From positions 14,277 through 78,276 of the forward strand of contig SCSU01000066.1 in NCBI GenBank assembly GCA_004299275.1: 64,000 nt of DNA, read 5' to 3'. Position numbers and translations under genes: made by a program. How positions within the stretch are numbered: position 1 is the first letter of the stretch; each line of letters opens with the position of its first letter. The notes beneath the pieces were generated by a model. The model searched no databases. It was given only the letters and a program-made list of their open reading frames with translations, and had not been told where the DNA came from. Source of the DNA: Patescibacteria group bacterium. GTDB lineage: Bacteria > Patescibacteriota > Patescibacteriia > 2-12-FULL-57-11. This document shows, in pieces, positions 2,140 through 64,000 of the stretch.

Positions 2140-3162
2140 TTACAAAAGCGTCGGTCTCTCCGGCGGCTTTAGTCCCAGATGTTCGTAAGCGCGTGGCGTG
2201 GCGAGGCGGCCGCGCGGCGTGCGTTCGAGGAACCCCAGCCGGAGCAGGAACGGTTCGTAAATTTCTTCAATCGTGTCCACTTCTTCCGCCGTGGCGGCGG
2301 CGAGCGCCGAAAGTCCGACCGGACCGCCGCGGAAGCGCTCGATAATGGCTGTGAGGAGCCGCCGGTCAACAGCGTCCAGTCCGAGTCGGTCAACCTCGAG
2401 CGAAGCGAGGGATTGGACGGCGATTTCACTCGTGATTGTACCGGAATGCCGGACTTCGGCATAGTCGCGGACGCGCTTCAATAACCTGTTGGCGACCCGC
2501 GGCGTGCGGCGCGAGCGGCTGGCAATTTCCTGGAGCGCAATTTCTCCCGCAGCAACTCCGAGCAGTTTGGCGCTGCGTTTCAAAATTGAAAGGATTTCTT
2601 TTTCTTCGTAATAGTCCAGCCGGTAGGTGACGCCAAAGCGGTCGCGGAGCGGCGAGGAGAGGAGCGACATCCGCGTGGTCGCGCCGATTAAGGTAAAACG
2701 CGGGAGGGTGAGCCGGAGGGTGCGCGCCGCCGGCCCCTTGCCCACGACGAGGTCTAGGGCAAAATCCTCCATCGCCGGGTAGAGCACCTCTTCAATTTGC
2801 CGGTTTAAGCGGTGGATTTCGTCCACAAAAAGCACCTCGCCCGGCTCGAGCGATGAGAGAATCGCGGCGAGGTCGCCGACTTTTTCGAGCGCCGGACCAG
2901 AGGTCACTTTAATCGGCACCCGCATCTCAGCCGCGATGACGTGAGCCAATGTGGTCTTGCCCAAGCCCGGGTTGCCGTAAAGGAGCACGTGTTCAATCGG
3001 CTCTTTGCGCCGGCGCGCGGCTTCGAGAAATATTGACAGGTTCTCCTTGATTTTTTCCTGGCCGACAAACTCGGCGAGCGTCTTGGGGCGCAGGGTTTGC
3101 TCAAAAATTTGCTCATCCGGCGCGGCTGCGGCGGCAGTGGGGCGTAGGTCGGGGAGAGGCAT
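2140..3162 (-). CDS. ruvB: Holliday junction branch migration helicase RuvB
   Basis: [18 protein letters not shown] Walker A, DEIHRL, and the conserved RuvB C-terminal domain. The start is chosen at MPLPDL, so the upstream part of the ORF is probably not translated. Confidence 0.93.
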
Positions 3163-3227
3163 ACTACAGAGAGCGTATATCGGCGAATAGCAAATGGCAA
3201 ATTGTGAGTAGCACTTTGAAAATTCAA

Positions 3228-3300
3228 TTCGTATTTTCGTACCCATTCGTACTTTCGTCGTCTGATTATTCGTAAATTAGCGTTGATTCGTAATTCGTAT
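3228..3300. repeat. TTCGTAA/ATTCGTA heptamer array (locus A), just upstream of ruvB
   Basis: cattcgtactttcgtcg...attcgtaaatt...gattcgtaattcgtatcc. Related arrays occur at 4262-4360 and 45699-45748. Confidence 0.7.
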
Positions 3301-3400
3301 CCTATAAAAAAACCGCCTCGGGCCGTGGCCTCTAGCGGAGATGGACCTGTCCACCGGCTTGCCCCCCGAATCCGCCAGTTGGCGGAGAAGGGGGGAGCTC

Positions 3401-3688
3401 CTAGCGGAGATGAAAGAGAATCGCGTCCGAGCTGTGGACACACTCGCGGATTGCTCCTGGGCCGAATGCGCCGGCGACGGCGTCCATGATGATGACGCGG
3501 GCGGTCAGCAGAGCATTCCCCACGGGCTTGGTTTCGCGCCAGTCGGCGAGCAGTCCTCCGGCTCGGTCGCGGACGAAGACCCGGAGCTTGCCGTTGCCCT
3601 CGTCGCCCCAGCTCACGTGGACTGTTGCGATTTCGCCGCGCACCTCGCGGAGAGGGCGGAGGAGGGTCACTGGTTTATCAGCCATCAC
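3401..3688 (-). CDS. hypothetical protein (B-type); a paralog lies at 4452..4736
   Basis: 95 aa; aligns with the 4452..4736 product (VHVSWGDEGNGKLRVFVRD vs VQISWDSVGEDGSMEVRLFD). Confidence 0.55.
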   Translation of the reverse strand: MMADKPVTLLRPLREVRGEIATVHVSWGDEGNGKLRVFVRDRAGGLLADWRETKPVGNALLTARVIIMDAVAGAFGPGAIRECVHSSDAILFHLR

Positions 3689-3702
3689 TTTTCCCTCCGG
3701 TG

Positions 3703-4152
3703 CTAGATGAGCGAAAAGCCGGCGTAACCGTGCCAGAGGAGCACCGCTTCGTTCCGAGGGTCGAGGATTGTCTCCTCGCCCGAGAAGTCAGCGAAGTCGA
3801 GGTTGGCTGGGAGATTGTGGTACTCGAGTCCGTCGCTCGTGAAGTGCGTTGGCCCGCGGCCGCCGACCCAGATCTCCTCCTCGTAGGCCGAGAGCAATGC
3901 TTGCCTCAAGAAGGGAATGACGCGCTCGTCGTCCTTGCGCCAGCCGCGGTAGTGCATTCCCCAGACCGGCTGCTCCCGCCACCAGATGAGTATCTGGCCG
4001 AGGACCCGCTTGCCGATCGTGTGGCAGTCATCGGTGTAGCGCCAGTCCCCCTTTTGGTAGAAGGCGCTGGCAGCTGCCTCGGCTCCTGATTTTCGGCAGG
4101 CCTCCCGGCTGGCCCCGAAAAAGAACTGCTTGATTTCGGCATGGTTCGGCAC
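3703..4152 (-). CDS. hypothetical protein (A-type), co-oriented with the B-type gene
   Basis: 149-aa ORF with 15 nt to the next gene; no domain recognised. Confidence 0.5.
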   Translation of the reverse strand: MPNHAEIKQFFFGASREACRKSGAEAAASAFYQKGDWRYTDDCHTIGKRVLGQILIWWREQPVWGMHYRGWRKDDERVIPFLRQALLSAYEEEIWVGGRGPTHFTSDGLEYHNLPANLDFADFSGEETILDPRNEAVLLWHGYAGFSLI

Positions 4153-4261
4153 GTTCCCCTCCTTTGTTTGGGCGCGATGAAGGTATCAGGTAATTTTTTT
4201 TGAGGCAAGTGGATGCTCGCCAGAGGCTCGACCTCCTCAGAGGTCGAGCCTCTGGCGAGCA

Positions 4262-4360
4262 TTCGGTTATTCGTACGTTCGTCGCCTGCTTAGTCGTACT
4301 TTCGCAAAATTCGTAATTCGTAGATTTGTACTGATTCGTAATTCGTAATCCGTAATTCGT
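4262..4360. repeat. TTCGTAA heptamer array (locus B), preceded on the - strand by a hairpin plus T-run terminator
   Basis: attcgtaattcgtagatttgtactgattcgtaattcgtaatccgtaattcgtaaccc. Then ataaaaaaaccgcgagacgtgtagtccgcgg, which is a rho-independent terminator in - sense. Confidence 0.7.
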
Positions 4361-4451
4361 AACCCATAAAAAAACCGCGAGACGTGTAGTCCGCGGCGGG
4401 GGCCGTCCTTCGCTAAAGCTACGGACGGTAAATGGCGTGCGATGACTCCGC

Positions 4452-4736
4452 TCATTGGATTTTGAAGCTGATGGAGCGGTTCCGGATGGTGCTCTGGCGC
4501 ACACGGTTGGGGCCGAGCGCTCGTTCGACGATGAGCGCGAGGAACCTCCAGACGATGGCGTCTTTGGGCGGAACAATCATCGGGCCGGCCCAGACGTCGA
4601 AGAGGGTCCCGCCCGAGTCGAAGAGGCGCACCTCCATACTGCCGTCCTCCCCGACGCTGTCCCAGCTGATTTGCACTTCCCCGATGCCCGCCTGGTGTCT
4701 GGTCAGGTGGTTGTGGAGCTCTTCCGACGGTGTCAC
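4452..4736 (-). CDS. hypothetical protein (B'-type paralog)
   Basis: 94 aa, homologous to 3401..3688. Confidence 0.55.
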   Translation of the reverse strand: MTPSEELHNHLTRHQAGIGEVQISWDSVGEDGSMEVRLFDSGGTLFDVWAGPMIVPPKDAIVWRFLALIVERALGPNRVRQSTIRNRSISFKIQ

Positions 4737-4809
4737 GCGATGTCTCCTCCTGGGGAGGAGTACAGCACAATCAGTGTAATTTGACTAGTCCCTCGGAGTT
4801 GGCTGTTCG

Positions 4810-4845
4810 GCAACAAAAAACGCGAAATCTAATTTCGCATTTTTT
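4810..4845. terminator. bidirectional hairpin terminator
   Basis: aaaaaacGCGAAATctaATTTCGCatttttt. Confidence 0.55.
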
Positions 4846-4867
4846 GGTGCCTGGGGTGGGACTCGGG
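4846..4867 (-). repeat. 3' fragment of tRNA-Leu (T-loop to CCA), partial direct duplication
   Basis: tggtgcctggggtgggactcg matches the 3' ~20 nt of the intact tRNA at 4996-5078. Perfect hairpins at 4898-4920 and 4951-4996 lie between the fragment and the intact gene. Confidence 0.7.
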
Positions 4868-4995
4868 TTCGCCTTGGAGCGGCTCACCCCTGGGCTTGCG
4901 CCGGTCCGATACCATCGGACCGGCTCGAGCCCGTTCGACTCCCACATTTCGGGAACACTTCGGAAAGCCTCGCATAGAAGCGAGGCTTTCCGAAG

Positions 4996-5078
4996 TGCCT
5001 GGGGTGGGACTCGAACCCACACGGCCTTGCGGCCACTCAATTTTAAGTCGAGCGCGTATACCATTCCGCCACCCAGGC
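4996..5078 (-). tRNA. tRNA-Leu (anticodon TAA), long variable arm
   Basis: 7-bp acceptor stem gcctggg/cccaggc, anticodon loop cttaaaa, T-arm gggttcgagtccc, no encoded CCA. Confidence 0.85.
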
Positions 5079-5348
5079 AAAGCTTTCTTGCAACATCATC
5101 CTTAAGGTACTTTTCCCCTTGGAAGTCTTGAGGTATTTTTCTCTTCTGATTGCGTCATCTTTTGAAAGGAATACCTCGAAAAAGAGCAGTTTAACCGGCA
5201 GCACCCGTCGCGTCGTCCATGTTTTACCCGCGTTATGTTCCTTGATTCTGCTTTCAAGATTTTCAGTTCGGCCAATATAGAGCCTTCCGTCTCTTAAGCT
5301 TACCAAGACGTAAACCGTGTGCATAAAGGAGATTTTACCCAGCACCAC
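5043..5348 (-). CDS. GIY-YIG nuclease-domain protein (YhbQ/UPF0213-like)
   Basis: YVLVSLRDGRLYIGRTENLESRIKEHNAGK...REKYLK. The last 12 codons and the stop overlap the 5' end of tRNA-Leu, and the TAA stop codon is the tRNA anticodon. Confidence 0.75.
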   Translation of the reverse strand: MVLGKISFMHTVYVLVSLRDGRLYIGRTENLESRIKEHNAGKTWTTRRVLPVKLLFFEVFLSKDDAIRREKYLKTSKGKSTLRMMLQESFAWVAEWYTRST

Positions 5349-5388
5349 GTTGGGTGCTGGGTACCCCGTACCCTACGTGGTACGGGGT

Positions 5389-5471
5389 AAGTCGAGCGCG
5401 TATACCACCTGCCCCGTGCCGTCCCCCGACGTAACATCGGGGGACTGGTTCGGGGTTCCGCCACCCAGGCC
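5389..5471 (-). repeat. 5' fragment of tRNA-Leu (positions 1 to ~35) with a 49-bp insertion bearing a perfect 9-bp-stem hairpin
   Basis: taagtcgagcgcgtatacca[cctgccccgtgccGTCCCCCGAcgtaacaTCGGGGGACtggttcggggt]tccgccacccaggcc. Two further perfect hairpins lie at 5347-5388. Confidence 0.7.
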
Positions 5472-5473
5472 AG

Positions 5474-7213
5474 TCATCGTTTTAACGCTTTAAGGAACGC
5501 CTCGCAAGGGAGAGTGTTTAAAATATCCTTTTCTGTTGCCCAGCCGCGGCGCGCTTGGGCGACTCCGAGCTCGAGCCAAGAGTAGTGGTGCGGGGCGTGG
5601 GCGTCGGAGTCAACCACCAGTTTCACCCCGAGTTTGACCGCCTCGCGGATGTGGCTATCGCGGAGGTCTAACCGTTCCATCGAGCCGTTTATTTCCACGG
5701 CCACGCCGTACTCTTTGGCCGCGCGGAGAATTTTTAAAATATCCACTGGATACGGTTCGCGGCGGCCGATCAGCCGTCCGGTCGGGTGGAAGAGAACGTT
5801 CACCAGTGGGTGCTTTAGCGCGCGGATAATTCGGTTGGTCATTTCTGATTCGGAAAGGTTGAAATGCGAGTGCACGGCGACACAGACCAAATCCAATTTT
5901 TTGAGCGCCGCGTCGGCGATGTCGAGCATTCCGTCTTTTAAGATATTAACTTCGGCGCTTTTTAAAATTCGGAATTTTCGATGTAGAATTTTGTATTTCG
6001 AATTTAGTGCTTCGATTTCTTTACCCTGCTTCTCCAAATCTTTTTCCGTCAGCCCGCCGGTCATGGCTAACTGCCGCGTGTGGTCAGTAATGGCGATATA
6101 AGACAGGCCGTTCTTGGCCGCGGCCTCGGCCATCGCGGCGATTGACGCCGCGCCGTCAGTCCAGTTGGTCTGCACCTGGAGATCGCCCTTAAGCGAGCCG
6201 TAAGGGATGAGTTGGGGCAGGGCGTGTTTGGCCGCCGCCTCAATTTCGCCGGCAGCGCTGCGGAGCTCGGGCGGAATCCAGTCCAAGCCGAGTTTTTGAT
6301 AAATTTCTTGCTCCGTTTTTCCCGCGATGTGTTTCTCTCCCTTGAACAGCCCGTATTCCGAAAGCTTCCACCCCTTTTTAATGGCGATTTTTCGGATTTC
6401 GATGTTATGCGTTTTGTCGCCGGTAAAATACTGGAGCGCGGCGCCAAAACTCGCCGGCGGCAGGACGCGCAAATCGGCCTCGATCCCGGCGCTGAGGCGC
6501 ACGTTGGCTTTGGTCGGCCCGCGGCCGGTGACCTCGAGCACATCCGGGTGTTTGCAAAAAACATCCAGCGTCCGTCCGGAATTTTTGGCGATGGCCAGAA
6601 TATCAATATCGCCAACTGTTTCCTGCCGGCGCCGATAGGAGCCGGCAATAACCACTTCCTCCACACCGGGAACTTTGCGGATGGCGTCGGTCAGACGTCG
6701 GGCAACGGGGTCAACCGCGCCGAGCATAAAACGGCCGCGGCTTCGTTTTTGAAATTCAATACTCCGCAGAATTTTTTGCTCGGCGCGCGCTCCGTGGCGC
6801 GGCAGAGTGCGGATTTTGCCGGCGCGCGCCGCTTGCTCGAGGTCAGCGACCGTGCGCACTTTGAGTTTTTTCCAGAGCAGTTTGATGGTCTTCGGTCCCA
6901 CGCCTTCGACCGCGGTGAGCGCCTCCACGTCCACCGGCATTTTCTTTTTTAATTTTTCGTAGTAGGCGAGCTTGCCGGTCTTGAGCAGTTCTTCAATTTT
7001 TTCGGCGATGCTCACGCCGACTCCGGGCACGGAGTTGAGCGCTTTGATTCCCCCCTCGTTGTAGATATCTGCTAGCGACTGACCCAGGGACTCAATCGTC
7101 GCCGCCACGCGCTGGTAAGCGCGGGGCTTAAACGGTATCTCGTCCATTTCCAAAAAATCGGCGATGGTGTAGAAAATTTCGGCGATTTCCTGATTAGAAG
7201 GAATACGCGCCAT
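5474..7213 (-). CDS. polX: family X DNA polymerase with a C-terminal PHP domain (PolX)
   Basis: HhH motifs, GSYRRRQETVGDIDIL nucleotidyltransferase motif, and PHP histidines at the C-terminus (HTRQLAMTGG..., HSHFNLSE). Confidence 0.9.
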   Translation of the reverse strand: MARIPSNQEIAEIFYTIADFLEMDEIPFKPRAYQRVAATIESLGQSLADIYNEGGIKALNSVPGVGVSIAEKIEELLKTGKLAYYEKLKKKMPVDVEALTAVEGVGPKTIKLLWKKLKVRTVADLEQAARAGKIRTLPRHGARAEQKILRSIEFQKRSRGRFMLGAVDPVARRLTDAIRKVPGVEEVVIAGSYRRRQETVGDIDILAIAKNSGRTLDVFCKHPDVLEVTGRGPTKANVRLSAGIEADLRVLPPASFGAALQYFTGDKTHNIEIRKIAIKKGWKLSEYGLFKGEKHIAGKTEQEIYQKLGLDWIPPELRSAAGEIEAAAKHALPQLIPYGSLKGDLQVQTNWTDGAASIAAMAEAAAKNGLSYIAITDHTRQLAMTGGLTEKDLEKQGKEIEALNSKYKILHRKFRILKSAEVNILKDGMLDIADAALKKLDLVCVAVHSHFNLSESEMTNRIIRALKHPLVNVLFHPTGRLIGRREPYPVDILKILRAAKEYGVAVEINGSMERLDLRDSHIREAVKLGVKLVVDSDAHAPHHYSWLELGVAQARRGWATEKDILNTLPCEAFLKALKR

Positions 7214-7220
7214 ATATCAG

Positions 7221-7263
7221 CACGGACCTTGAAGGTCCGTTTTTCAGACCTTTAAGGTCCGTG
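7221..7263. repeat. GGACCTTGAAGGTCC / CAGACCTTTAAGGTCC hairpin doublet, copy 2
   Basis: cacGGACCTTGAAGGTCCgtttttCAGACCTTTAAGGTCCgtg. Confidence 0.75.
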
Positions 7264-7266
7264 TCA

Positions 7267-7542
7267 CTATTTGACGAGCCGGAAGGGGTTCACGGCATTC
7301 TCCCACTGCGGTTCCTTTTTCATTTTCCGTTTTTTGTTCGCTTCAAGAATTTCCCGGAAGATTTTGTAGTCCAAAGGTTCAATCGCATATTCGCGCTGGA
7401 GCGTCACGATGTATTCGGTCTGGGTGATGGTTTTGTAGAGGTAATTGTAAAGAAAGAAAAAAATGAACAGGACGGAGATGAACACGCTCACAATCATAAT
7501 GAGGAGCGAAAGCCGGTAGATTTGTTTCAAAGTCAGCTTCAT
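7267..7542 (-). CDS. small membrane protein, hypothetical
   Basis: 91 aa with one TM helix; its end overlaps the next gene by 4 nt. Confidence 0.45.
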   Translation of the reverse strand: MKLTLKQIYRLSLLIMIVSVFISVLFIFFFLYNYLYKTITQTEYIVTLQREYAIEPLDYKIFREILEANKKRKMKKEPQWENAVNPFRLVK

Positions 7543-20546: not shown

Positions 20547-20630
20547 GACACTTCTCCTTTTTCGGTTTCTGTTTCTGTTACTGTTTCTTTTCTACGTTCT
20601 ACATCCTACGTTCTACCTACTACCTACTGT

Positions 20631-23498
20631 TTAATAATCACCTCCTTTCTGTGCAGTCGAACGCTTAAGAATTTTTTCCGCGAGTTCGGCCAGCCGCCGC
20701 CGCCAAGGGAGAGCCGCTCCCCAGCCGGCGGTGAGCAGTACGCCGCCCGCGGCGCCGGTGGCGCCGGCGCTGGCCGGAGAAATCGGCGGCTCGTTTTTTC
20801 CCGGTCGCGGCGGCAAGGGCGCGGGCAAGAGCACTTGGAGGTCACCTCCGTCGCGTACGGCCAGTTCGCGTTCGCCTTTGGTCGTGAGCCGCAGAATTCC
20901 GGTGGCTCGTACTTCGGCACCGACCGCATAGGCGTCGCGGCTTTTAAGTTTTGTCGGGAGCTTTAGGTCCAGCTCGCCCTGCCGCGAAAGAGTGATTTTT
21001 TGCGCGGTTTTATCAATTACGGTTCCTTCAGTAGTGAGGAGCGTGAGGAGCGGCGCGTCTTCGGCTTCCTCGAGCGCGGCGAGAAATTGCGGCTCTGGCG
21101 CCGCGCCGGGTTCGGCGGCAATCGTCTGCGCGCGAACCCGCTCCTGACCGCTGCGCGTGATTGTCGTTCCAGTCACTTTTAGACGATCGCCGCGGTTTAT
21201 TTCCCTTGCGTCTTTAGGGAGCTCAATCAAAATGCCGCCGGTCTCGGTCAGGACTGGAATGGTTTGAGCGCCGAGCGGCCCGCGTTCAGCGAGCGCGATG
21301 CCGCCTAAAGTGATACGCGGAGATTTTTTGGGGCTGGTTGTTTTTTTCTTAGATTTAATTCGGTAGGTTCGGTTCGAAGAAGTTTTAACGCTGGCGATTT
21401 CCATTACCGCCTCTTCTTCTTCCGCCAAATCTTTTTTATAGACGCGCAGTGAACGCTTTAGTGTGGAAGATGCTCCGGCGGCGTCAGCAACAGCCAGAGA
21501 GACAGAAAATTTTCCGGATGAGGCGTAGACATGCGCCGCCGACACTCCCTCGGCCGTCAGGCCGTCGCCAAAGTCCCAGCGGTAGGCGGAGAGCGGACCG
21601 TCGGCGTCCCAGGATTCCCCGGCGTCAAAGATAAAGGGGTCGCCGGGGGAATCCGGCCGCGTGATGTCTATCGCCGGCCGCGGCAGATGAACAGGGGCAG
21701 CGATAATATTTGTCTCCCCCGGCGTTGGCTGGCTGGTCCAGTTGGGCTCGCCGTCGCCGCCGCGGCCGCGGGCAATACCGGATTCAGCCGCCTCGTAACC
21801 GAGCCGGTCAGCGATGGCGCCATCCGGCGCGATTAGAGCGAGCTCGGCGCCGGAGTTGGGGAGAGCGATTTTTATTTCTTCACGATTAAGCGCGACAAAG
21901 CCGCCGACTGGGATTGTAATTTCCGGGAGCGCGCTCGGCCGGCGGGAGTCAAACGCGACTTTCCAGCCGGCGAGCTTTTGGCTTGAGCTGGAAATGTTCT
22001 GAATCTCCACGAACTCGCCTAGGGCATCCGGGCCGGCCGGGTTCGGGAGTATCTCGGAAATTCGGAGCGGGGCGATTCCAGAGAGGAGCGTGGTGATTTC
22101 ATTTGTCCCGCCTGGGGTTGGCGTGGCGGACTCGGCAAAGTCTTCAGCCGCGTTGCCGCTGGAAAATCCGTCAAAAACGCGGGCAATGCTCGTGCCGGGG
22201 CGGCTCCCGGCTGGCGCGTTATCCTCGGGCGTTCCGTCGCCGCTCCCCCAAATTACCTGCTCGCTGGTGTAGCCCTCCGGGTCAATCAGAAAAATAATGC
22301 CGCTTTCTTTGTTGATTGCGCCGGTAAGACTCGGGACGAGCAGATGTGCGTCTCCGGCCAGCGTGCCGGTGAGCGCCACGGGCTCGTCGGTATTGGCGCG
22401 GAGCCGCCAACCGGCGAGCGACACCGCGCGCGGCTCCGGATTAGCCAGCTCCACCCAAGCGCTCAGAGCGTCGTCGGGGTAAATTTCGTTGACTAAAACT
22501 CGCCCCGGAGGATAGCGGCGTTCCGCTGACTCGACGCTCGTGTTTCGTTTTTTATTTGATATCGGCGCAACAACCACGTTTTGACCACCGGGAGTTGGCG
22601 CGGCGGTCAGCCGCCAGGCGCCGTCGGGCAAAGTCTCTCGCGCGATTGATTGCCCGGGTTCTGGTGCGGGCAGAGCAGAGCCGCCGTAGTTGATTGTGTC
22701 CTCGGTCGCCCCGTTGCAGATGAGCGACACCGTGTCCCCGTCGTTGTTTAGTTTGGCGGAGGGGAGATAGACCGTGAGATAAGCCGCCGGCACATTGAGC
22801 TCAGCGACAGACGCTATTTTTCCGTGACTGTCGTGAAGCTCGCAGAAATCAGCGGGGACTGTTGCTGGGCCGGCATTAAAGAGTTCAACCCACTCTTTTC
22901 CATCGGCTGCCGGCGCGGGAAAAATTTCCGATAATTTGAGCGTTAGAGGAGGGGGTGTCGGCTCGGCGGGCAGCTCTTCGATTTTTCCGCAGTCATTCTC
23001 GAGGCCGGCGCTGTCGCCCTCCAGCCGCTCGCACCAATTTTCCGGCAATGGTTCGGCGTGCGAGTCGCGCCGCTCGATGACTTTGTTTTTGGTGGCCGGA
23101 TAGGTAAAAACCTCGGCCAGCGTTCCCGAGGCGTCGCGTAAGCCGATTTCTTCGCCGGATTCGGCAAGCGAGCCCCAAGCGGAGTCAAAAACAGTCAGTG
23201 TGCTTGAGGCCTTATCGGCGAGAAATGTCGCCGCATCCCCGGCAATAATAGCCAGACCTTGCGGCGGGAGGAGATTGCCGCCCTGATAGGATTTAATGCC
23301 GTGGTTGGTCTTCTGTTCCCAAAATTTCCAAAGTGTGAGGTCAATCGGCGCTTCGGAGATGTTTTGAATTTCAAGCCACTCGTGCTCCGCCGCGCCAATA
23401 GTCGAAATTTCGGTAATAACCAGCGGGCTGGCGGCGCGGACAACAGTCGGCGCGAGCAGAAGGAGCAACGAAAAAACCAGAGAGGGGAGAAAACGCAT
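20631..23498 (-). CDS. large surface protein with repeated lamin-tail (LTD) domains and a PKD domain; C-terminal TM anchor
   Basis: LTD motifs (ITEISTIG..EWLEIQN; LSEIFPAP..EWVELFN; LVNEIYPD..AWVELAN; ISEILPNP..EFVEIQN), PKD signature WDFGDG, N-terminal signal peptide, C-terminal hydrophobic helix. Confidence 0.7.
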   Translation of the reverse strand: MRFLPSLVFSLLLLLAPTVVRAASPLVITEISTIGAAEHEWLEIQNISEAPIDLTLWKFWEQKTNHGIKSYQGGNLLPPQGLAIIAGDAATFLADKASSTLTVFDSAWGSLAESGEEIGLRDASGTLAEVFTYPATKNKVIERRDSHAEPLPENWCERLEGDSAGLENDCGKIEELPAEPTPPPLTLKLSEIFPAPAADGKEWVELFNAGPATVPADFCELHDSHGKIASVAELNVPAAYLTVYLPSAKLNNDGDTVSLICNGATEDTINYGGSALPAPEPGQSIARETLPDGAWRLTAAPTPGGQNVVVAPISNKKRNTSVESAERRYPPGRVLVNEIYPDDALSAWVELANPEPRAVSLAGWRLRANTDEPVALTGTLAGDAHLLVPSLTGAINKESGIIFLIDPEGYTSEQVIWGSGDGTPEDNAPAGSRPGTSIARVFDGFSSGNAAEDFAESATPTPGGTNEITTLLSGIAPLRISEILPNPAGPDALGEFVEIQNISSSSQKLAGWKVAFDSRRPSALPEITIPVGGFVALNREEIKIALPNSGAELALIAPDGAIADRLGYEAAESGIARGRGGDGEPNWTSQPTPGETNIIAAPVHLPRPAIDITRPDSPGDPFIFDAGESWDADGPLSAYRWDFGDGLTAEGVSAAHVYASSGKFSVSLAVADAAGASSTLKRSLRVYKKDLAEEEEAVMEIASVKTSSNRTYRIKSKKKTTSPKKSPRITLGGIALAERGPLGAQTIPVLTETGGILIELPKDAREINRGDRLKVTGTTITRSGQERVRAQTIAAEPGAAPEPQFLAALEEAEDAPLLTLLTTEGTVIDKTAQKITLSRQGELDLKLPTKLKSRDAYAVGAEVRATGILRLTTKGERELAVRDGGDLQVLLPAPLPPRPGKNEPPISPASAGATGAAGGVLLTAGWGAALPWRRRLAELAEKILKRSTAQKGGDY

Positions 23499-24463: not shown

Positions 24464-24603
24464 ATCAACCCATTCGACACTGCGGGCTAAAGCCCGCGTT
24501 ATGCTCAGGGTTGATACTGAGCCGCGCCTTAAACCGCGCCCTTTAGGGCACGGTTTGGCGCGAGTCGAAGTATCAAAAAAATGGCGCCAAAAATTTGAAA
24601 TTG

Positions 24604-24676
24604 AGGTCATCTGAGAATTCCGTTTCGTAGCGAAATTACGCGATTGCAGCAGAAAAAGGAGTTTTCAGATGACCTC
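24604..24676. mobile_element. MITE-like element, copy 2 (73 bp), TIRs GAGGTCATCTGAGAATTC / GAGTTTTCAGATGACCTC
   Basis: Perfect inverted termini; internal gcagcagaaaaagga shared with copy 1. Confidence 0.65.
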
Positions 24677-24690
24677 ATCATGAAACTCAT

Positions 24691-27922: not shown

Positions 27923-29656
27923 CCTAACCGTTAGTTCGGTGCACGCCGCTTGGGAGCCCCCGAGCGGTTTTTCGTTTCTAAGAGCTTCCGCGTTTGGCGC
28001 ATTGTGTTGACGAGACGTTGTCTTTGGCCACTGACGCTAGTGGGTGTCCAAAGTTCAGCGGAACGTGGCGGGACTTTGACAATTTAATGACGAATAAAAA
28101 GGGTAATGAAAAATAGCTCCATAAGCGCGAAAAGGACGTTTTCGTGCTTCAGTGGAGTGAGAGCATACACTAAGGGCAAACGGTGGATGCCTCGACACAA
28201 GAAGCCGATGAAGGACGTAGCAGCCTGCGATAAGCCCCGGGGAAGTGGCAAGCAACTTTTGATCCGGGGATTTCCGAATGGGGAAACCCATCGTGCTGGA
28301 AGAGCACGGTATCGTGCGCTGAATCCATAGGCGTACGAAGGGCACCTGGCGAAGTGAAACATCTCAGTAGCCAGAGGAAGAGAGACAAAAAATGCTGACC
28401 CAACAGACAACCGACAACTTACAACGAACAACCGAAAGGTTGGGAGTTGTTCGTTGATCGTTGTCCGTTGCGTCAGCTGGATTCCCCTAGTAGTGGCGAG
28501 CGAACGGGGACCAGCCGAAACTCCAGGCGTGATTCACCGAACTGACCCCGACTTTACGTCGGGGCGCAGACGGCTGATGAAGGTGTAGGCCGCTGCGCCT
28601 GGAGGGTAACAGGATCGTGACGTCGGACGCCTACTCGTCCGGGTAGAGGAAACCGCAAGGACATGTCTTCCCAAGCAGAATCCGCTGGAAAGCGGAACCA
28701 GAGCGGGTGATAGTCCCGTACGCGAATGGGGACATAACTCTACTGTCGCGAACCCTCAGTACCGCGGGTCTCGTGAAAGCCTGCGGGAAAGCGCCGCGAC
28801 TATGCGGCAAGGCTAAATACTTCTTGTGATCGATAGTGAACCAGTACCGTGAGGGAAAGGTGAAAAGCAGCCCGGAAGGGCGATGAAACAGTATCTGAAA
28901 CCGTTTGCTTACAAGGAGTCAGAGCCGTGCGCAGCACGGCGACTATCAACTACCAACTATCAACAAAACAACGGTCAATAATTCTGTTGCCCGTTGTGTG
29001 TTGTAAGTTGTGTGTTGGTTGTTGCCGCGCTGTGCGCGGTGATGGCGTTCCTATTGAAGAATGAGCCAACGAGTTTGCCGTGCGTCGCTTAGGTTAAGTC
29101 CCTGAGGGGACGAAGCCGGAGCGAAAGCGAGTCTGAATAGGGCGTATGGACTTTAGAGGCGGAGTTGGAGCCGGCGCGCAAGCGTCAAACCTCCAACTTC
29201 TCACCTCTAATTTCCAAAGGTGGCGCACGCAAGACCCGAAACCCGGTGACCTAGCCATGACCAGGGTGAACTCCGCCGAAAGGCGGAGGGAGGCCCGAAC
29301 CCGTAAGCCGTGCAACACTTTGGGATGAGTCGTGGTTAGCGGAGAAATTCCAATCGAACTGGGTGATAGCTGGTTCTCCCCGAAATAGCTTGAGGGCTAG
29401 CGTCGGTTACACCTCGCGAGGGGTAGAGCACTGAAAGGAAAGCGGTGGAGCAATCCTACGCGTTCCTACCAAACTCCGAATACTCGCGGGGCATCCCGGC
29501 AGTCAGAGCATGGGGGCTAAGCTCCATCGCTCAAAAGGGAAACAGCCCAGATCGCAGTCTAAGGCCCCTAAATCTTCCCGACCTAAAGTCGGGACTCCGA
29601 CACCGCAAGGTCGTCGGAGCGGTTAAGTGTCAAAGGTTGTGGAGTAACTTAAACAA

Positions 29657-32200: not shown

Positions 32201-32937
32201 AAACATACCTTCTCTCCTGCGAGGAAACTCGCGGGTAATAAACAAGCTCAAACGGTAGAGACCACACCATACGACCTTCCTGTTTCGGAGGTCCCAGGTC
32301 TGCTATAGTGCAGATGTATGACGGTTAATGCCGTAGGAAAGGAATGCGTTGAAGTCGATCGAGCATATCTTGCCGGTCTCATTGACGGTGATGGTGCCAT
32401 CATGGCTATCATCGAACCGCACAGTGAGAAGAAATTTCGTTTCCGTGTTCGGATCGAAGTAAAAGTGACTCAAAAGCATGAGGAAGACGTCTCGTTTTTG
32501 CCGAAACTTTTGGGTTGCGGATTGATTCGAACAAATAGGACAACGTATGAGTGGATTACACGAGACCAGCAACATGTCTTGCGTATCCTCTCAATGGTTC
32601 GTCCTTATACGAGAATGAAAAATCGGCAGATGGAAATAGCAATGAAGATCATCCGTACTCCGATACGGACTCAGGGTGATCTTTTGCGCGTTGCTCGATT
32701 GGCAGATGCATTGGCGCGTTTCAACGTGCGATCCAACAATCGCCGTAGGAACTATGCGACAATGATCGAAACGCATTTCTCCTCTAACGACTGATTGGTA
32801 AACGTTGGGTTTACCATGAGATATGCCCCGCCATGGCGGGGGTATCATACGGCTTGCACCTGTGTTGTGTCCGGTGACGGATATCAATATGGTGATGGAA
32901 TAGTCTGATACTCGCGGAAACGCGAGATAACAAAAAT
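32201..32937 (+). mobile_element. group I intron 2 in the 23S (after CCTGGGGCTGgag), carrying a LAGLIDADG ORF
   Basis: The exon sequence GGGGCTG..AGGTCCCAAGGGT is split by ~740 nt. Confidence 0.75.
32318..32794 (+). CDS. LAGLIDADG homing endonuclease (intron-encoded, single-motif type)
   Basis: YLAGLIDGDG motif. Confidence 0.85.
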   Translation: MTVNAVGKECVEVDRAYLAGLIDGDGAIMAIIEPHSEKKFRFRVRIEVKVTQKHEEDVSFLPKLLGCGLIRTNRTTYEWITRDQQHVLRILSMVRPYTRMKNRQMEIAMKIIRTPIRTQGDLLRVARLADALARFNVRSNNRRRNYATMIETHFSSND

Positions 32938-32965
32938 GAGGTCCCAAGGGTTTGGCTGTTCGCCA

Positions 32966-33288
<323 letters not shown>

Positions 33289-43747: not shown

Positions 43748-43831
43748 TTGCTCACGTCAGTCATCCTTTTTTTGTTATCAAAACCCCGCCATGAGAGCGG
43801 GGTTTGTTTTTTCAAGCCAATGTCATTTCCT

Positions 43832-43849
43832 TGACGGTTGCAACGTCTG
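43832..43849. promoter_or_regulatory. 16S pre-rRNA processing-stem half (inverted-repeat partner at 45676-45693)
   Basis: ttgacggttgcaacgtct here, and agacgttgcaaccgtcaa on the other side of the 16S (exact reverse complement, 18 bp). Confidence 0.65.
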
Positions 43850-43984
43850 GCGCCGGAGGCGCAACAGTTAACTTTCAACTTACAACTTTCAACTTGGTTG
43901 ATTGTTGTTTGTTGATTGTTTTACAGTTGCGCTGCTTCGCAGCGCTCGACCTGGTTGTCATCCGCCTTACGGCGGAGTAACTCC

Positions 43985-45560
<1,576 letters not shown>

Positions 45561-45675
45561 AGAGAAAACCCCTCTACCCTCGCGGGTTTCGGGGCTCAAT
45601 CAATGAGTCATTACCCAACTTGCCTGCCATAGGCAGGCGTTGTTTTTGTTGTTGGAGTTTCACTCGAAAATTATA

Positions 45676-45693
45676 GACGTTGCAACCGTCAAA
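45676..45693. promoter_or_regulatory. 16S processing-stem half (partner of 43832-43849)
   Basis: See 43832-43849. Confidence 0.65.
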
Positions 45694-45698
45694 GACAC

Positions 45699-45748
45699 GA
45701 TATCCTACGAATTACGAATCAGATACGAATTTACGAATCCGTAATGTT
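45699..45748. repeat. TACGAAT/TTCGTAA heptamer array (locus C), upstream of the 16S
   Basis: ctacgaattacgaatcagatacgaatttacgaatccgtaatgttcgtagg. Confidence 0.7.
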
Positions 45749-45995
45749 CGTAGGCCATTGCCTAGACGGTTTTTGGCTTGATGTTTGTTCGTCTTCAGTT
45801 GTCAAAGTCCCGCCGCGGCCTTGGCCACGGTGCGAGCAGTATATAAGGAAGGCGTCTAGGGCGTCAAGGAGCCGGTGTCAGGTTGTGTCCACCGGGCTTC
45901 CTCAATGCTCAGATAGCTGATTTTGCCATTATTTTTACAACTTTTGACCTCGGGGAGCGATTGGCTTATATTGTTCGGGCGCCAAGGAGGAGAAC

Positions 45996-46541
45996 ATGCG
46001 CAACTTGAGTCCGCCGGTCTTGGACCGGCGTCAGTTCTGCGGCGGAACAGTCGCTGTCGGTCTCGGCCTCACCGGTTCGCTCGTCACGGCCTGTCTCGCG
46101 CCGCGGGACGAAGAGGAGGAAGAGGGCTACGACGAAGTTGCCTATTTCCAGGCGACCGCGAGCGATGACGGCCACACGGCGCACGGAGTCATCCTGCGGC
46201 GTTACGACCGTTTCCGCTCTGTGCCGATGAGGCTCTTCGCGGACGGCGACCGCTCGCGTCCGGTCATGGTCGGCGGCCGGCCGGTTTCCGGCCCGCTCGT
46301 CTACGCCATCCCCGGGCTCGGCGGCAAACCCAGCGAGCCGCACGCCTACGAGATCCACTACGTCCAGTCGAACAGCGAACGGGTATGGCTCTCGTTGGCC
46401 TGGCATCTTCAGCCGCTCGTGGCGGGACACGCCTACGCCGTGCTCCGCAAGCGGGCGCGACTCGCACTGCCCGCACCCGAGGAACTCTACGCCGAGGACC
46501 GCGCCATCATCGCCAAGGAAGAGGCCTGGGCGCTCGGCTGA
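45996..46541 (+). CDS. Tat-signal lipoprotein, hypothetical; very high GC (~68%)
   Basis: DRRQFCGGTVAVGLGLTGSLVTAC twin-arginine motif plus a lipobox. Confidence 0.55.
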   Translation: MRNLSPPVLDRRQFCGGTVAVGLGLTGSLVTACLAPRDEEEEEGYDEVAYFQATASDDGHTAHGVILRRYDRFRSVPMRLFADGDRSRPVMVGGRPVSGPLVYAIPGLGGKPSEPHAYEIHYVQSNSERVWLSLAWHLQPLVAGHAYAVLRKRARLALPAPEELYAEDRAIIAKEEAWALG

Positions 46542-48749: not shown

Positions 48750-48911
48750 GAGGTCATCTGAAAATTCCAGATTTGGTCGAAATCGCCCAGTTTTGGCTGC
48801 ACCGACCTTCTCGACCCTCACAAGATACTCCGTATATTGTTCGGGTCTGCGGCGGCCGGCTCGCTCAAAACTGGACAATTTCGCTTCAAAAGCGAATTTT
48901 CAGATGACCTC
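48750..48911. mobile_element. MITE-like element, copy 3 (162 bp), TIRs GAGGTCATCTGAAAATTC / GAATTTTCAGATGACCTC
   Basis: Perfect 18-bp inverted termini; the interior is unrelated to copies 1 and 2. Confidence 0.6.
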
Positions 48912-49446: not shown

Positions 49447-49758
49447 TTAACTGACGGCCGCCGGTTCGGCTTCCTTTTTCGTTTCGTCTTTTTTTGGAGG
49501 TGGCACTATTTGGCGCTTTTTCCCCTCCACCAAGTTTAGGGAAAGCAAAAGATTCCAGACCGTGTCCGAGGTTTGCGCGCCGCGGCTGAGCCAATGACGG
49601 ACGCGTTCGGCGTCGAAGTCGGCTTTTTTGGTGCGGGGGTTGTAGTTGCCGAGGATTTCCACAGCCACGCCCCAGGGGTCGCGGGCCTTCTCCGACACAA
49701 TCAGCCGATAGTAGGGTTGTTTTGTTTTTCCCGTGCGGGAGAGACGGATGGTTAACAT
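49447..49758 (-). CDS. rpsP: 30S ribosomal protein S16
   Basis: MLTIRLSRTGKTKQPYYRLIV...GNYNP. Confidence 0.95.
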   Translation of the reverse strand: MLTIRLSRTGKTKQPYYRLIVSEKARDPWGVAVEILGNYNPRTKKADFDAERVRHWLSRGAQTSDTVWNLLLSLNLVEGKKRQIVPPPKKDETKKEAEPAAVS

Positions 49759-49911
49759 GAGGTTAGTAGTTGGAGGTTAGAGGTTAGAGGTTGGATGTGG
49801 GGACTTTTTTGACTGGTTGAGTATAGGGGAGCAGCGGCCGGGAGTCAAGAGTTTGCCGACCGCGATGACAAAACGGCCTGGCTCTGTTACATTCCTCTCC
49901 GGAGGTGTCCG

Positions 49912-63585: not shown

Positions 63586-64000
63586 ATGAGAATCCTTGGT
63601 ATTGAAACCTCTTGCGACGAGACGGCGCTCGCGATTGTTGAGGGCAAGGGCGAGCGGGTGCGGGTGGCGCGAGAGCTCGTTGCCTCGCAGGTTAAAATTC
63701 ACAAAAAGTACGGCGGGGTGGTGCCGGAAGTGGCGGCGCGGCGGCATGCCGAAGTGATGCCGTGGATGCTTAAAAAAATGCTCGGCCGAGAACGAGCGCG
63801 GGCTTTTGATGTGATTGCCGTGACCGCCGGTCCGGGGCTTATCACTTCGCTCCGCGTCGGCGTGGACACGGCGCGCTCGCTCGCTTACGCCTGGGGTAAG
63901 CCGCTCGTGGCTGTGAATCATCTCGCGGGGCACATTGCTGCCAATTTTATTGACGAAATAACAAATACCAAATACCAAATTCCAAATACCAAATTCCAAA
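63586..64000 (+). CDS. tsaD: tRNA N6-adenosine threonylcarbamoyltransferase TsaD (5' portion; runs off the window)
   Basis: MRILGIETSCDETALAIV...GGVVPEVAARRHAE...AVTAGPGLITSLRVG...AVNHLAGH. Confidence 0.9.
   Translation, partial: MRILGIETSCDETALAIVEGKGERVRVARELVASQVKIHKKYGGVVPEVAARRHAEVMPWMLKKMLGRERARAFDVIAVTAGPGLITSLRVGVDTARSLAYAWGKPLVAVNHLAGHIAANFIDEITNTKYQIPNTKFQ

Follow-up and report, generated by a model that had tools for sequence, protein, structure and literature searches.

Several kinds of short bacterial repeat have been described, and small extragenic palindromes and heptamer repeats in general are known, the latter being poorly understood. Repetitive extragenic palindromic (REP) sequences and bacterial interspersed mosaic elements (BIMEs) of Proteobacteria are single imperfect palindromes with a conserved stem, the Correia elements of Neisseria and the Rickettsia palindromic elements are miniature inverted-repeat transposable element (MITE)-like sequences with subterminal repeats, and the operators of omega, a ribbon-helix-helix repressor of plasmid pSM19035, are strictly contiguous heptads that overlap promoters. 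Described heptamer repeats include the short tandemly repeated repetitive (STRR) sequences of cyanobacteria, GGGAATC in Xanthomonas and TAACTGA in Beggiatoaceae (PMC4692102, PMC4679880). Here we analyzed 64,000 nucleotides (nt) of contig SCSU01000066.1 from a Patescibacteria group bacterium (assembly GCA_004299275.1, positions 14,277 to 78,276 of the forward strand; hereafter the window), which has a guanine-plus-cytosine (GC) content of 56.6% and carries three clusters of the heptamer ATTCGTA (TACGAAT on the other strand) upstream of ruvB, of a gene that we call A and of the 16S rRNA gene. We found that these clusters are built from a polar module of four heptads, 32-33 nt long, with the form ATTCGTA-N-ATTCGTA-N2-4-ATTCGTA-ATTCGTA, and that the same module recurs at other loci, usually as an inverted pair that fills the junction between two genes.

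All three clusters are intergenic, and together they contain 15 of the 16 exact copies of TACGAAT/ATTCGTA in the window (Table 1). The densest 100 nt held six heptad copies, compared to a simulated maximum of one in 290 of 300 runs and never more than three (first-order Markov, n=300), which bears out an earlier note on this DNA that had reported three arrays of this motif at these places. That note had described the motif as palindromic and the clusters as heptamer arrays; the motif is right and the clusters are real, but the palindrome TACGAATTCGTA itself is absent from the window, and the clusters are not plain tandem arrays, successive heptads being spaced 7, 8, 10-11 or 18 nt apart with no strict period of 7. 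The sole contiguous run of four heptads lies at 4334-4361 and includes one mismatch; elsewhere, dimers are separated by 8, 10, 11 or 18 nt. Two short Logan assemblies from different sequencing runs (L291 and L292), reached through gene B, matched the window letter for letter across array 2, indicating that the arrays are not assembly artefacts, and array 2 showed no copy-number variation between these two samples, which probably represent one population. Both assemblies break off within array 1, at a k-mer common to all three arrays.

Within the module, heptads begin at offsets 0, 8, 18-19 and 25-26 (the third offset is 17-19 in the window) and share the conserved core ATTCG. The module of array 3 reads, on the minus strand, ATTCGTA a ATTCGTA tctg ATTCGTA ATTCGTA followed by GG. 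Array 1 has a full module at 3268-3299 (ATTCGTA a ATTAGCG ttg ATTCGTA ATTCGTA), preceded at 3227-3251 by a partial one (offsets 0/8/18), and array 2 holds a module at 4292-4322 (AGTCGTA c TTTCGCA aa ATTCGTA ATTCGTA) overlapped by another at 4316-4347 (ATTCGTA g ATTTGTA ctg ATTCGTA ATTCGTA). Scanning the full 64 kb at a relaxed threshold returned four modules, three of them on the plus strand (starting at 3268, 4292 and 4316) and one on the minus strand (starting at 45738), and nothing further.

We then investigated how far this architecture extends, and found that the spacing 0/8/18-19/25-26 produced 45 matches in 2.86 Mb of fetched DNA, compared to 0-7 matches for seven other spacings, 3 for the mirror-image order and 0 in reversed sequences. 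Metagenome contigs scanned with TACGAATTACGAAT-N(0-30)-TACGAAT gave at least 120 stretches, and among the matches listed the structured module occurred in at least 38 copies in at least 20 loci with GC contents of 32-44%, so that the arrays do recur outside the window. The window, at a GC fraction of 0.57, has the same module architecture as these loci, including the YTG spacer (Y, C or T). Viral contigs scanned with the same pattern gave 85 stretches, which carry the plain repeat and produced a single weak module match, and the module was absent from 85 ruvB loci, mostly from other phyla. The latter came from a ruvB-based scan of genome contigs whose best matches were 60-67% identical and which serves as a negative control only, because RuvB is too conserved. 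The RuvB protein of the window shares 100% identity with an NCBI entry for a Patescibacteria group bacterium. Protein searches placed its nearest named relatives in Candidatus Uhrbacteria and identified one module-bearing locus, L136, as the S10/spc ribosomal-protein operon of a Nealsonbacteria-like member of the Patescibacteria; lineage is confirmed for these two, the other module loci being Patescibacteria-like contigs.

A complete element consists of two modules in inverted orientation that enclose a variable core of 7-56 nt (10 pairs). It is 72-120 nt long and mostly fills a gene junction from the stop codon to the ribosome-binding site. L136 contains three such elements, at the S3/L16, L14/L24 and S8/L6 junctions, and at least seven modules within its 14 kb. 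Each begins 3-5 nt after a stop codon with TACGAAT TACGAAT cag TACGAAT a TACGAAT, continues through a core of 17-41 nt, and closes with ATTCGTA g ATTCGTA aat ATTCGTA ATTCGTA and G(G/T)(G/A)AA..ATG, the last heptad leading straight into G-rich letters that resemble a Shine-Dalgarno sequence. Of the 38 modules listed, 13 end 5-21 nt before a start codon in the ATTCGTA orientation, with gap, rplM, ftsZ and rplP among the genes downstream. Where arm polarity could be judged, arms after a stop codon carry the YTG spacer (in the ATTCGTA sense) and arms before a start codon an A-rich one. The spacers in the window (TTG, CTG and TCTG) make every arm there one of distal type, and array 1 read along minus-strand transcription is such an arm (TACGAAT TACGAAT CAA ...). 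A further locus, L122, carries a module pair inside its 23S rRNA gene together with a solo arm that follows a terminator T-run by 6 nt and precedes a 23S promoter-like site by about 70 nt, a layout like that of arrays 1 and 2, which likewise begin 6 nt after the T-runs of the terminators following genes B and B' (ATAGGA and ATGGGT, respectively).

This anatomy both joins the family to described heptamer repeats and sets it apart from them. The 7-nt word, the intergenic position, the occurrence of direct and inverted copies, the patchy distribution and the lack of an assigned function are common to STRR-type and TAACTGA repeats and to this family, as is, for the TAACTGA type, the placement of some copies directly upstream of start codons where the canonical ribosome-binding site is weak; this placement is seen in the 13 start-proximal modules and is not seen in the window, where the arrays stand 64 nt (array 1), about 110 nt (array 2) and 245 nt (array 3) from the next start codon. 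What sets the family apart from heptamer simple repeats is the polar grouping of four heptads at fixed spacings of 8, 10-11 and 7 nt, which usually occurs as an inverted pair and is common to Patescibacteria of very different base composition. Our literature search did not find the repeat sequence, although such an absence is no proof of novelty.

The elements turn over between close relatives. L136 and two further operons, L448 and L449, encode S3 proteins that share 95-96% identity, yet the S8/L6 spacer measures 4 nt in L448 versus a 119-nt element in L136, and the S3/L16 spacer is 16 nt in L449 versus a 97-nt element in L136 and L448. At the L14/L24 junction, L448 and L449 carry a second subfamily that keeps only the core ATTCG (ATTCGTT, ATTCGAT, ATTCGCT), and in remoter relatives (S3 70-93% identical) the same junctions are empty, hold diverged copies or hold unrelated palindromic elements. 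Upstream of ruvB, L081, a relative with 83% identity in RuvB, carries one degenerate module that is oppositely oriented and adjoins a different upstream gene, and L083 has a single TTTCGTA heptad. Such gain, loss and replacement between very close relatives indicates that the elements behave like REP- or MITE-type repeats. Inverted ends, a short variable core, presence/absence polymorphism, insertion at gene junctions and even into RNA or protein genes, and a possible supply of downstream expression signals are common to MITE-like elements and this family, with presence or absence at orthologous sites seen at the family level and the relatives of the window differing upstream of ruvB. Terminal inverted repeats likewise appear in the family, as the arms of the paired elements, but not in the solo arms of the window. 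Unlike the Correia and Rickettsia elements, this element is shorter and has no demonstrable target-site duplication or autonomous partner; short TAA/TTA matches flank some copies, as expected beside stop codons in AT-rich spacers.

We next compared the two arms of the 10 inverted pairs and found 257 heptad positions with the consensus in both arms, 20 with a one-sided change and 3 with compensated changes. Complementarity between spacers was at chance level (6 of 30 positions for the 2-4-nt spacer, 3 of 10 pairs for the 1-nt spacer). Because changes are rarely compensated, word and spacing are conserved rather than pairing, suggesting that selection or a generating process acts on the heptad word and its spacing. 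The family shares with REP sequences and BIMEs a short, extragenic, often palindromic and apparently multicopy nature, a position within operons or after genes and variability between strains; unlike them, its arms are repeated heptads without compensatory change. A REP-like palindrome is found in the inverted pairs and not in arrays 1 and 2, which are one-armed.

Our preferred reading, which we judge to have an even chance of being correct, is that the three clusters represent single arms of a non-coding repeat that occurs in dispersed copies. The family itself, its anatomy, its distribution and its turnover are shown by the data; that the element is mobile, recognized by a protein and without a gene-specific role is what we infer. 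Conservation of word and spacing without arm compensation is the main argument for a trans-acting protein that would recognize the heptads, whether a factor responsible for spreading the element or a nucleic-acid-binding protein of the host. The elements occupy spacers between genes and can also sit at helix tips of the 23S rRNA, and the arms in the window would be remnants or half-elements at the boundaries of transcription units, where insertions may be tolerated. They appear unlike operators of particular genes, and a role as ruvB-specific switches or replication iterons is unlikely. Several observations weigh against this reading. No transposase, REP-associated tyrosine transposase (RAYT)-like gene or binding protein was identified in the 64 kb of the window, no reference search having been made for RAYT. 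No clean target-site duplication could be defined, and filled and empty junctions differ in neighboring bases too. Strict polarity relative to genes and a fixed distance between module and start codon fit a selected function as well as they fit selfish spread, and a trace of the motif occurs upstream of ruvB in all three lineages examined (the window, L081 and L083), which could mean a conserved role at that promoter. In addition, the source genome is seen through four modules at three sites in one 64-kb window, and the family counts from metagenomes are lower bounds.

An unlikely alternative is that the elements act on RNA, with paired modules folding, once transcribed, into long hairpins with conserved internal loops. 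Cleavage or binding of these hairpins, by RNase III for instance, would process, stabilize or insulate cistrons, and single modules beside the ribosome-binding site would tune translation, as has been proposed for the TAACTGA repeats of Beggiatoaceae (PMC4679880). Such a role is attractive for paired copies close to start codons. Consistent with it, pairs are found within 23S rRNA and within operons whose transcription has to pass through them, the start-proximal modules end in a G-rich, Shine-Dalgarno-like stretch, array 3 lies just 5' of a putative 16S processing stem in the pre-rRNA, and the ATTCGTA direction carries TAA in all three frames. However, changes in the arms are uncompensated and the spacers are not complementary. 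Arrays 1 and 2 are solo arms that, as RNA, are less structured than 95% of shuffled sequences (z +1.5 and +1.6), and their distances from start codons and their orientation, opposite to that of start-proximal arms elsewhere, suit an RNA-level role poorly. Their transcription is itself uncertain because they follow terminators. Rfam gave no match over arrays 1 and 2 at E <= 1 and none over any array at the gathering threshold. In array 3, a short inverted segment (CCTACGAA ... TTCGTAGG) forms a weak hairpin (fold z -2.6).

It is likewise unlikely that the arrays are DNA operators or upstream-activating sites through which a host regulator or nucleoid protein controls ruvB, gene A, the 16S rRNA gene or the plus-strand gene starting at 45996, between which and the 16S gene array 3 is located. 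Heptad arrays bound by ribbon-helix-helix repressors and arrays of Fur-type boxes are precedents, and TCGTAAT, a cyclic permutation of the unit, equals the half-site of the Bacillus Zur box. Arrays of a 7-bp word in direct or inverted order are common to this family and to the omega operators, where one word serves each protein dimer; unlike those operators, the heptads here are irregularly spaced and occur within operons and rRNA, and we know of no ribbon-helix-helix-type protein that reads them. The idea of a binding-site array for a regulator, raised in the earlier note, stands in part. Preservation of word and spacing without arm compensation is the pattern expected if a protein recognizes each heptad, and the position of all three arrays upstream of genes and the motif traces before ruvB in three lineages also favor an operator role, but no binding protein was identified, with no candidate regulator nearby and no DNA-binding fold match for gene B. 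A gene-specific regulon is not supported, because the module lies at arbitrary junctions, within polycistronic ribosomal-protein operons and in 23S rRNA, and is gained and lost between close relatives. In addition, the window and L081 carry it in opposite orientations relative to ruvB. A consensus scan of 3000-5000 found no sigma-70-like promoter, with weak candidates visible by eye 30-190 nt downstream of the arrays, and the promoter-like site of the 16S gene lies upstream of array 3, not downstream of it. A sigma-70 promoter within the module was also rejected, since by inspection no heptad spacing yields a usable -35/-10 pair and the scan was empty. We considered a LexA/SOS box upstream of ruvB and rejected it as well, the sequence being unlike the LexA boxes known to us and the module also occurring at unrelated junctions.

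That the arrays are independent heptamer microsatellites, produced by replication slippage and unrelated and functionless, is quite improbable. Period-7 arrays are certainly frequent: the window has 8, compared to 0 for periods 4, 5, 8, 10, 11 and 13, and unrelated bacteria have 33 in 1.3 Mb, compared to 2-10 for periods 4, 5, 8, 10 and 11. Plain (TACGAAT)n runs occur on contigs whose GC content ranges from 25 to 67%, phage and cyanobacteria-like sequence among them, and control heptamers in the viral collection gave 29 (TAGCAAT), 7 (ATCGATA) and 115 (TAACTGA) stretches compared to 85 for TACGAAT, indicating that any heptamer forms arrays and that TACGAAT is among the commoner ones. Plain runs thus belong with the over-representation of heptameric repeats already described for bacteria (PMC4692102, PMC4679880). 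However, array 2 is identical in two sequencing runs, and the window arrays and the 38 listed modules share the polar spacing of 8, 10-11 and 7 nt and even the CTG/TTG spacers across GC contents of 36% and 57%. Slippage gives multiples of 7, which this shared spacing is not, and the explanation is thereby largely refuted.

Table 1. Features of the window that bear on the three heptad arrays (window coordinates).
Feature	Coordinates	Strand	Remarks
Array 1	3227-3299	+	Six heptads, five exact ATTCGTA and one TTTCGTA; exact TTCGTA at 3228, 3236, 3246, 3269, 3287 and 3294
Array 2	4262-4361	+	Degenerate left part (4262-4285), two modules and two more heptads up to 4361; exact TTCGTA at 4270, 4310, 4317, 4335, 4342 and 4356
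Array 3	45699-45754	-	Perfect module at 45706-45738; exact TTCGTA on the opposite strand at 45706, 45713, 45724 and 45732, and on the plus strand at 45747
ruvB	2140-3162	-	Downstream of array 1; ATG at 3162
Gene B	3401-3688	-	95 residues; orphan
Gene A	3703-4152	-	149 residues; GTG start at 4152; DUF5680 (PF18931, E = 2.9e-12)
Gene B'	4452-4736	-	94 residues; weak paralogue of B
tRNA-Leu(taa)	4995-5078
Terminator-like hairpin after gene B	Stem 3313-3338; U7 run 3306-3312	-	From fold and sequence
Terminator-like hairpin after gene B'	Stem 4375-4397; U7 run 4368-4374	-	From fold and sequence
Perfect inverted repeat	4213-4262		23 bp with a 4-nt loop, between array 2 and gene A; -58.7 kcal/mol, z -8.6
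16S rRNA gene	43989-45566	-	5' end at 45566
Putative 16S processing stem, 5' half (TTGACGGTTGCAACGTCT)	45675-45692	-	Exact complement at 43831-43848, 3' of the 16S gene
Promoter-like site TTGACG-18-TATACT	45838-45867	-	Consensus match

All genes around arrays 1 and 2 lie on the minus strand, and their order along transcription is tRNA-Leu(taa), B', terminator, array 2, the 23-bp hairpin, gene A, B, terminator, array 1 and ruvB, so that the succession of gene, terminator, array and next gene proposed for this region, with a third array upstream of the 16S gene, agrees with the coordinates. The further proposal of a tandemly duplicated gene-terminator-array unit could not be substantiated: although the parts follow one another in the same order, the two proteins share little, the terminators are unrelated in sequence, and the likeness of the two units at the DNA level is limited to about 60 nt of the arrays. 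Paralogy of B and B' is supported by alignment and is weak (26% identity over 81 residues, E = 5e-5 in a single comparison; 25% in a global alignment). Gene B had no Pfam, NCBIfam, PHROG or PADLOC match and no homologue other than itself among 5.8 billion proteins, and its AlphaFold2 model (alpha-beta3-alpha-beta2, predicted local distance difference test score 75.6) had no solved structural relative (E >= 0.07) and no match to a DNA-binding fold. Lacking homologues and having a moderate-confidence model without a solved fold match, gene B was rejected as the protein that binds the arrays. Nor does an A/B gene family accompany the arrays, as the earlier note had suggested it might, since no relative of A, B or B' was present in the approximately 290 loci fetched to that point, including all 20 that bear the module.

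The interval between tRNA-Leu and ruvB proved to be a variable islet when its gene content was compared in relatives, with entirely different genes in L081 and L083. A GIY-YIG endonuclease open reading frame (5043-5348) overlaps tRNA-Leu(taa), and partial copies of the tRNA, one of its own 3' end at 4848-4872 and one of its 5' half with an inserted segment at 5390-5470, enclose it (4848-5470). Because arrays 1 and 2 are direct repeats that flank genes A and B within this variable interval, we speculate that they may have joined in a local rearrangement of it. It is nevertheless highly improbable that a plasmid or phage integrated at tRNA-Leu, with the arrays as its iterons or centromere-like repeats, as the variable interval, the adjoining tRNA duplicates and GIY-YIG gene and the direct repeats around A and B might suggest, since the unit is 7 nt (32-33 nt for the module) and not 17-22 nt, no replication, partition, integrase or phage gene is present among neighbors that comprise DUF5680, two orphans and ruvB, the third array lies 41 kb away beside the 16S gene, the module is essentially absent from viral stretches, and relatives have the motif upstream of ruvB without A or B. 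A phage or defence origin of A, B and B' was rejected, none of them having a PHROG or PADLOC match. We also set aside TIGR-Tas arrays, in which conserved edges enclose variable spacers; no such spacers occur in the heptad arrays. The hairpin at 4213-4262 has no T-run adjoining it on either strand and, being single-copy in the window, was rejected as a repeated element.

Array 3 lies 139 nt upstream of the 5' end of the 16S gene, and the 5' half of the processing stem stands just 3' of it in the pre-rRNA. If the promoter-like site at 45838-45867 is used, array 3 would lie inside the 16S leader transcript. Between the 3' end of the 16S gene and the 3' half of the stem (43831-43848) are arrays of AACTTTC (four copies) and GTTGATT (three copies) at 43863-43922.

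The 23S gene of the window has two long hairpins inserted at helix tips (28385-28475 and 28930-29035), one an 88-nt insertion at Rfam model position ~229 and the other at ~583, which we take to be the helix-25 area. Their arms are heptamer arrays (CAACNNA in five copies against its complement; ACTATCA... against GTTGTGT...), and they resemble expansion or intervening sequences composed of heptad repeats. A group I intron match (79 bits) at 32887-33227 falls in the 2.3-kb gap that separates the 5S gene (33686) from the end of the 23S match (31397).

Period-7 arrays are a general feature of the window. An (AACCTCT)n array at 49740-49803 abuts the start codon of rpsP (49739, minus strand), which lacks a Shine-Dalgarno sequence and has a -10-like hexamer, TATACT, some 60 nt upstream; the array resembles the start-codon-proximal heptamer repeats of Beggiatoaceae. 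An (AAATACC)n array (63951-64000) lies in frame inside tsaD, right after ...VNHLAGHIAANFID, and is translated as EITNTKYQIPNTKFQ; the window ends within it. Mixed arrays of TTTCTG, TTCTACG and CTACCTA (20551-20633) stand upstream of a minus-strand gene with a GTG start at 20547. Other repeats include inverted-repeat elements at 24602-24677 and 48750-48911 that share terminal GAGGTCATCTGA(A/G)AATTC and may form a small MITE-like family, and hairpins at 131-169 (the end of a clpB-like gene) and 7208-7276 (upstream of the PolX gene) that share the core GACCTT-N-AAGGTC. The Nealsonbacteria-like S10/spc operons of L448, L449, L293 and L296 contain other recurrent families of intergenic hairpins that vary between close relatives, among them ...cctctctggcct..agagtttcttggcaaggtattaatatttaaagacc, ccccgttagaa...ttctaacgggg and, in L296, a GC-rich element of about 150-300 nt.

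To our knowledge, a polar four-heptad module that spans Patescibacteria of 32-57% GC is new, and so are the way it fills junctions from stop codon to ribosome-binding site, its presence in 23S rRNA and its turnover between strains. In practice, the arrays cause assembly breaks, as in the two Logan contigs that end in array 1, and those in the window should not be annotated as ruvB/SOS operators or as iterons. The 32-nt module is also a concrete bait for the protein that reads it. More tentatively, and as a somewhat unlikely extension, the module could be the site of a trans-acting protein across distant lineages of Patescibacteria and represent a new class of small element, either mobile by way of a heptad-binding transposase or marking or processing cistron boundaries; if so, the element would supply the next gene with a ribosome-binding site and would give rise to expansion hairpins in rRNA. 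Patescibacteria have tiny genomes and almost no recognized regulatory DNA, which would make a conserved, structured repeat at cistron boundaries, in ribosomal-protein operons and in rRNA notable, the more so as it turns over between near-identical strains, and the module would offer one of few handles on how these bacteria organize or reshuffle their transcription units.

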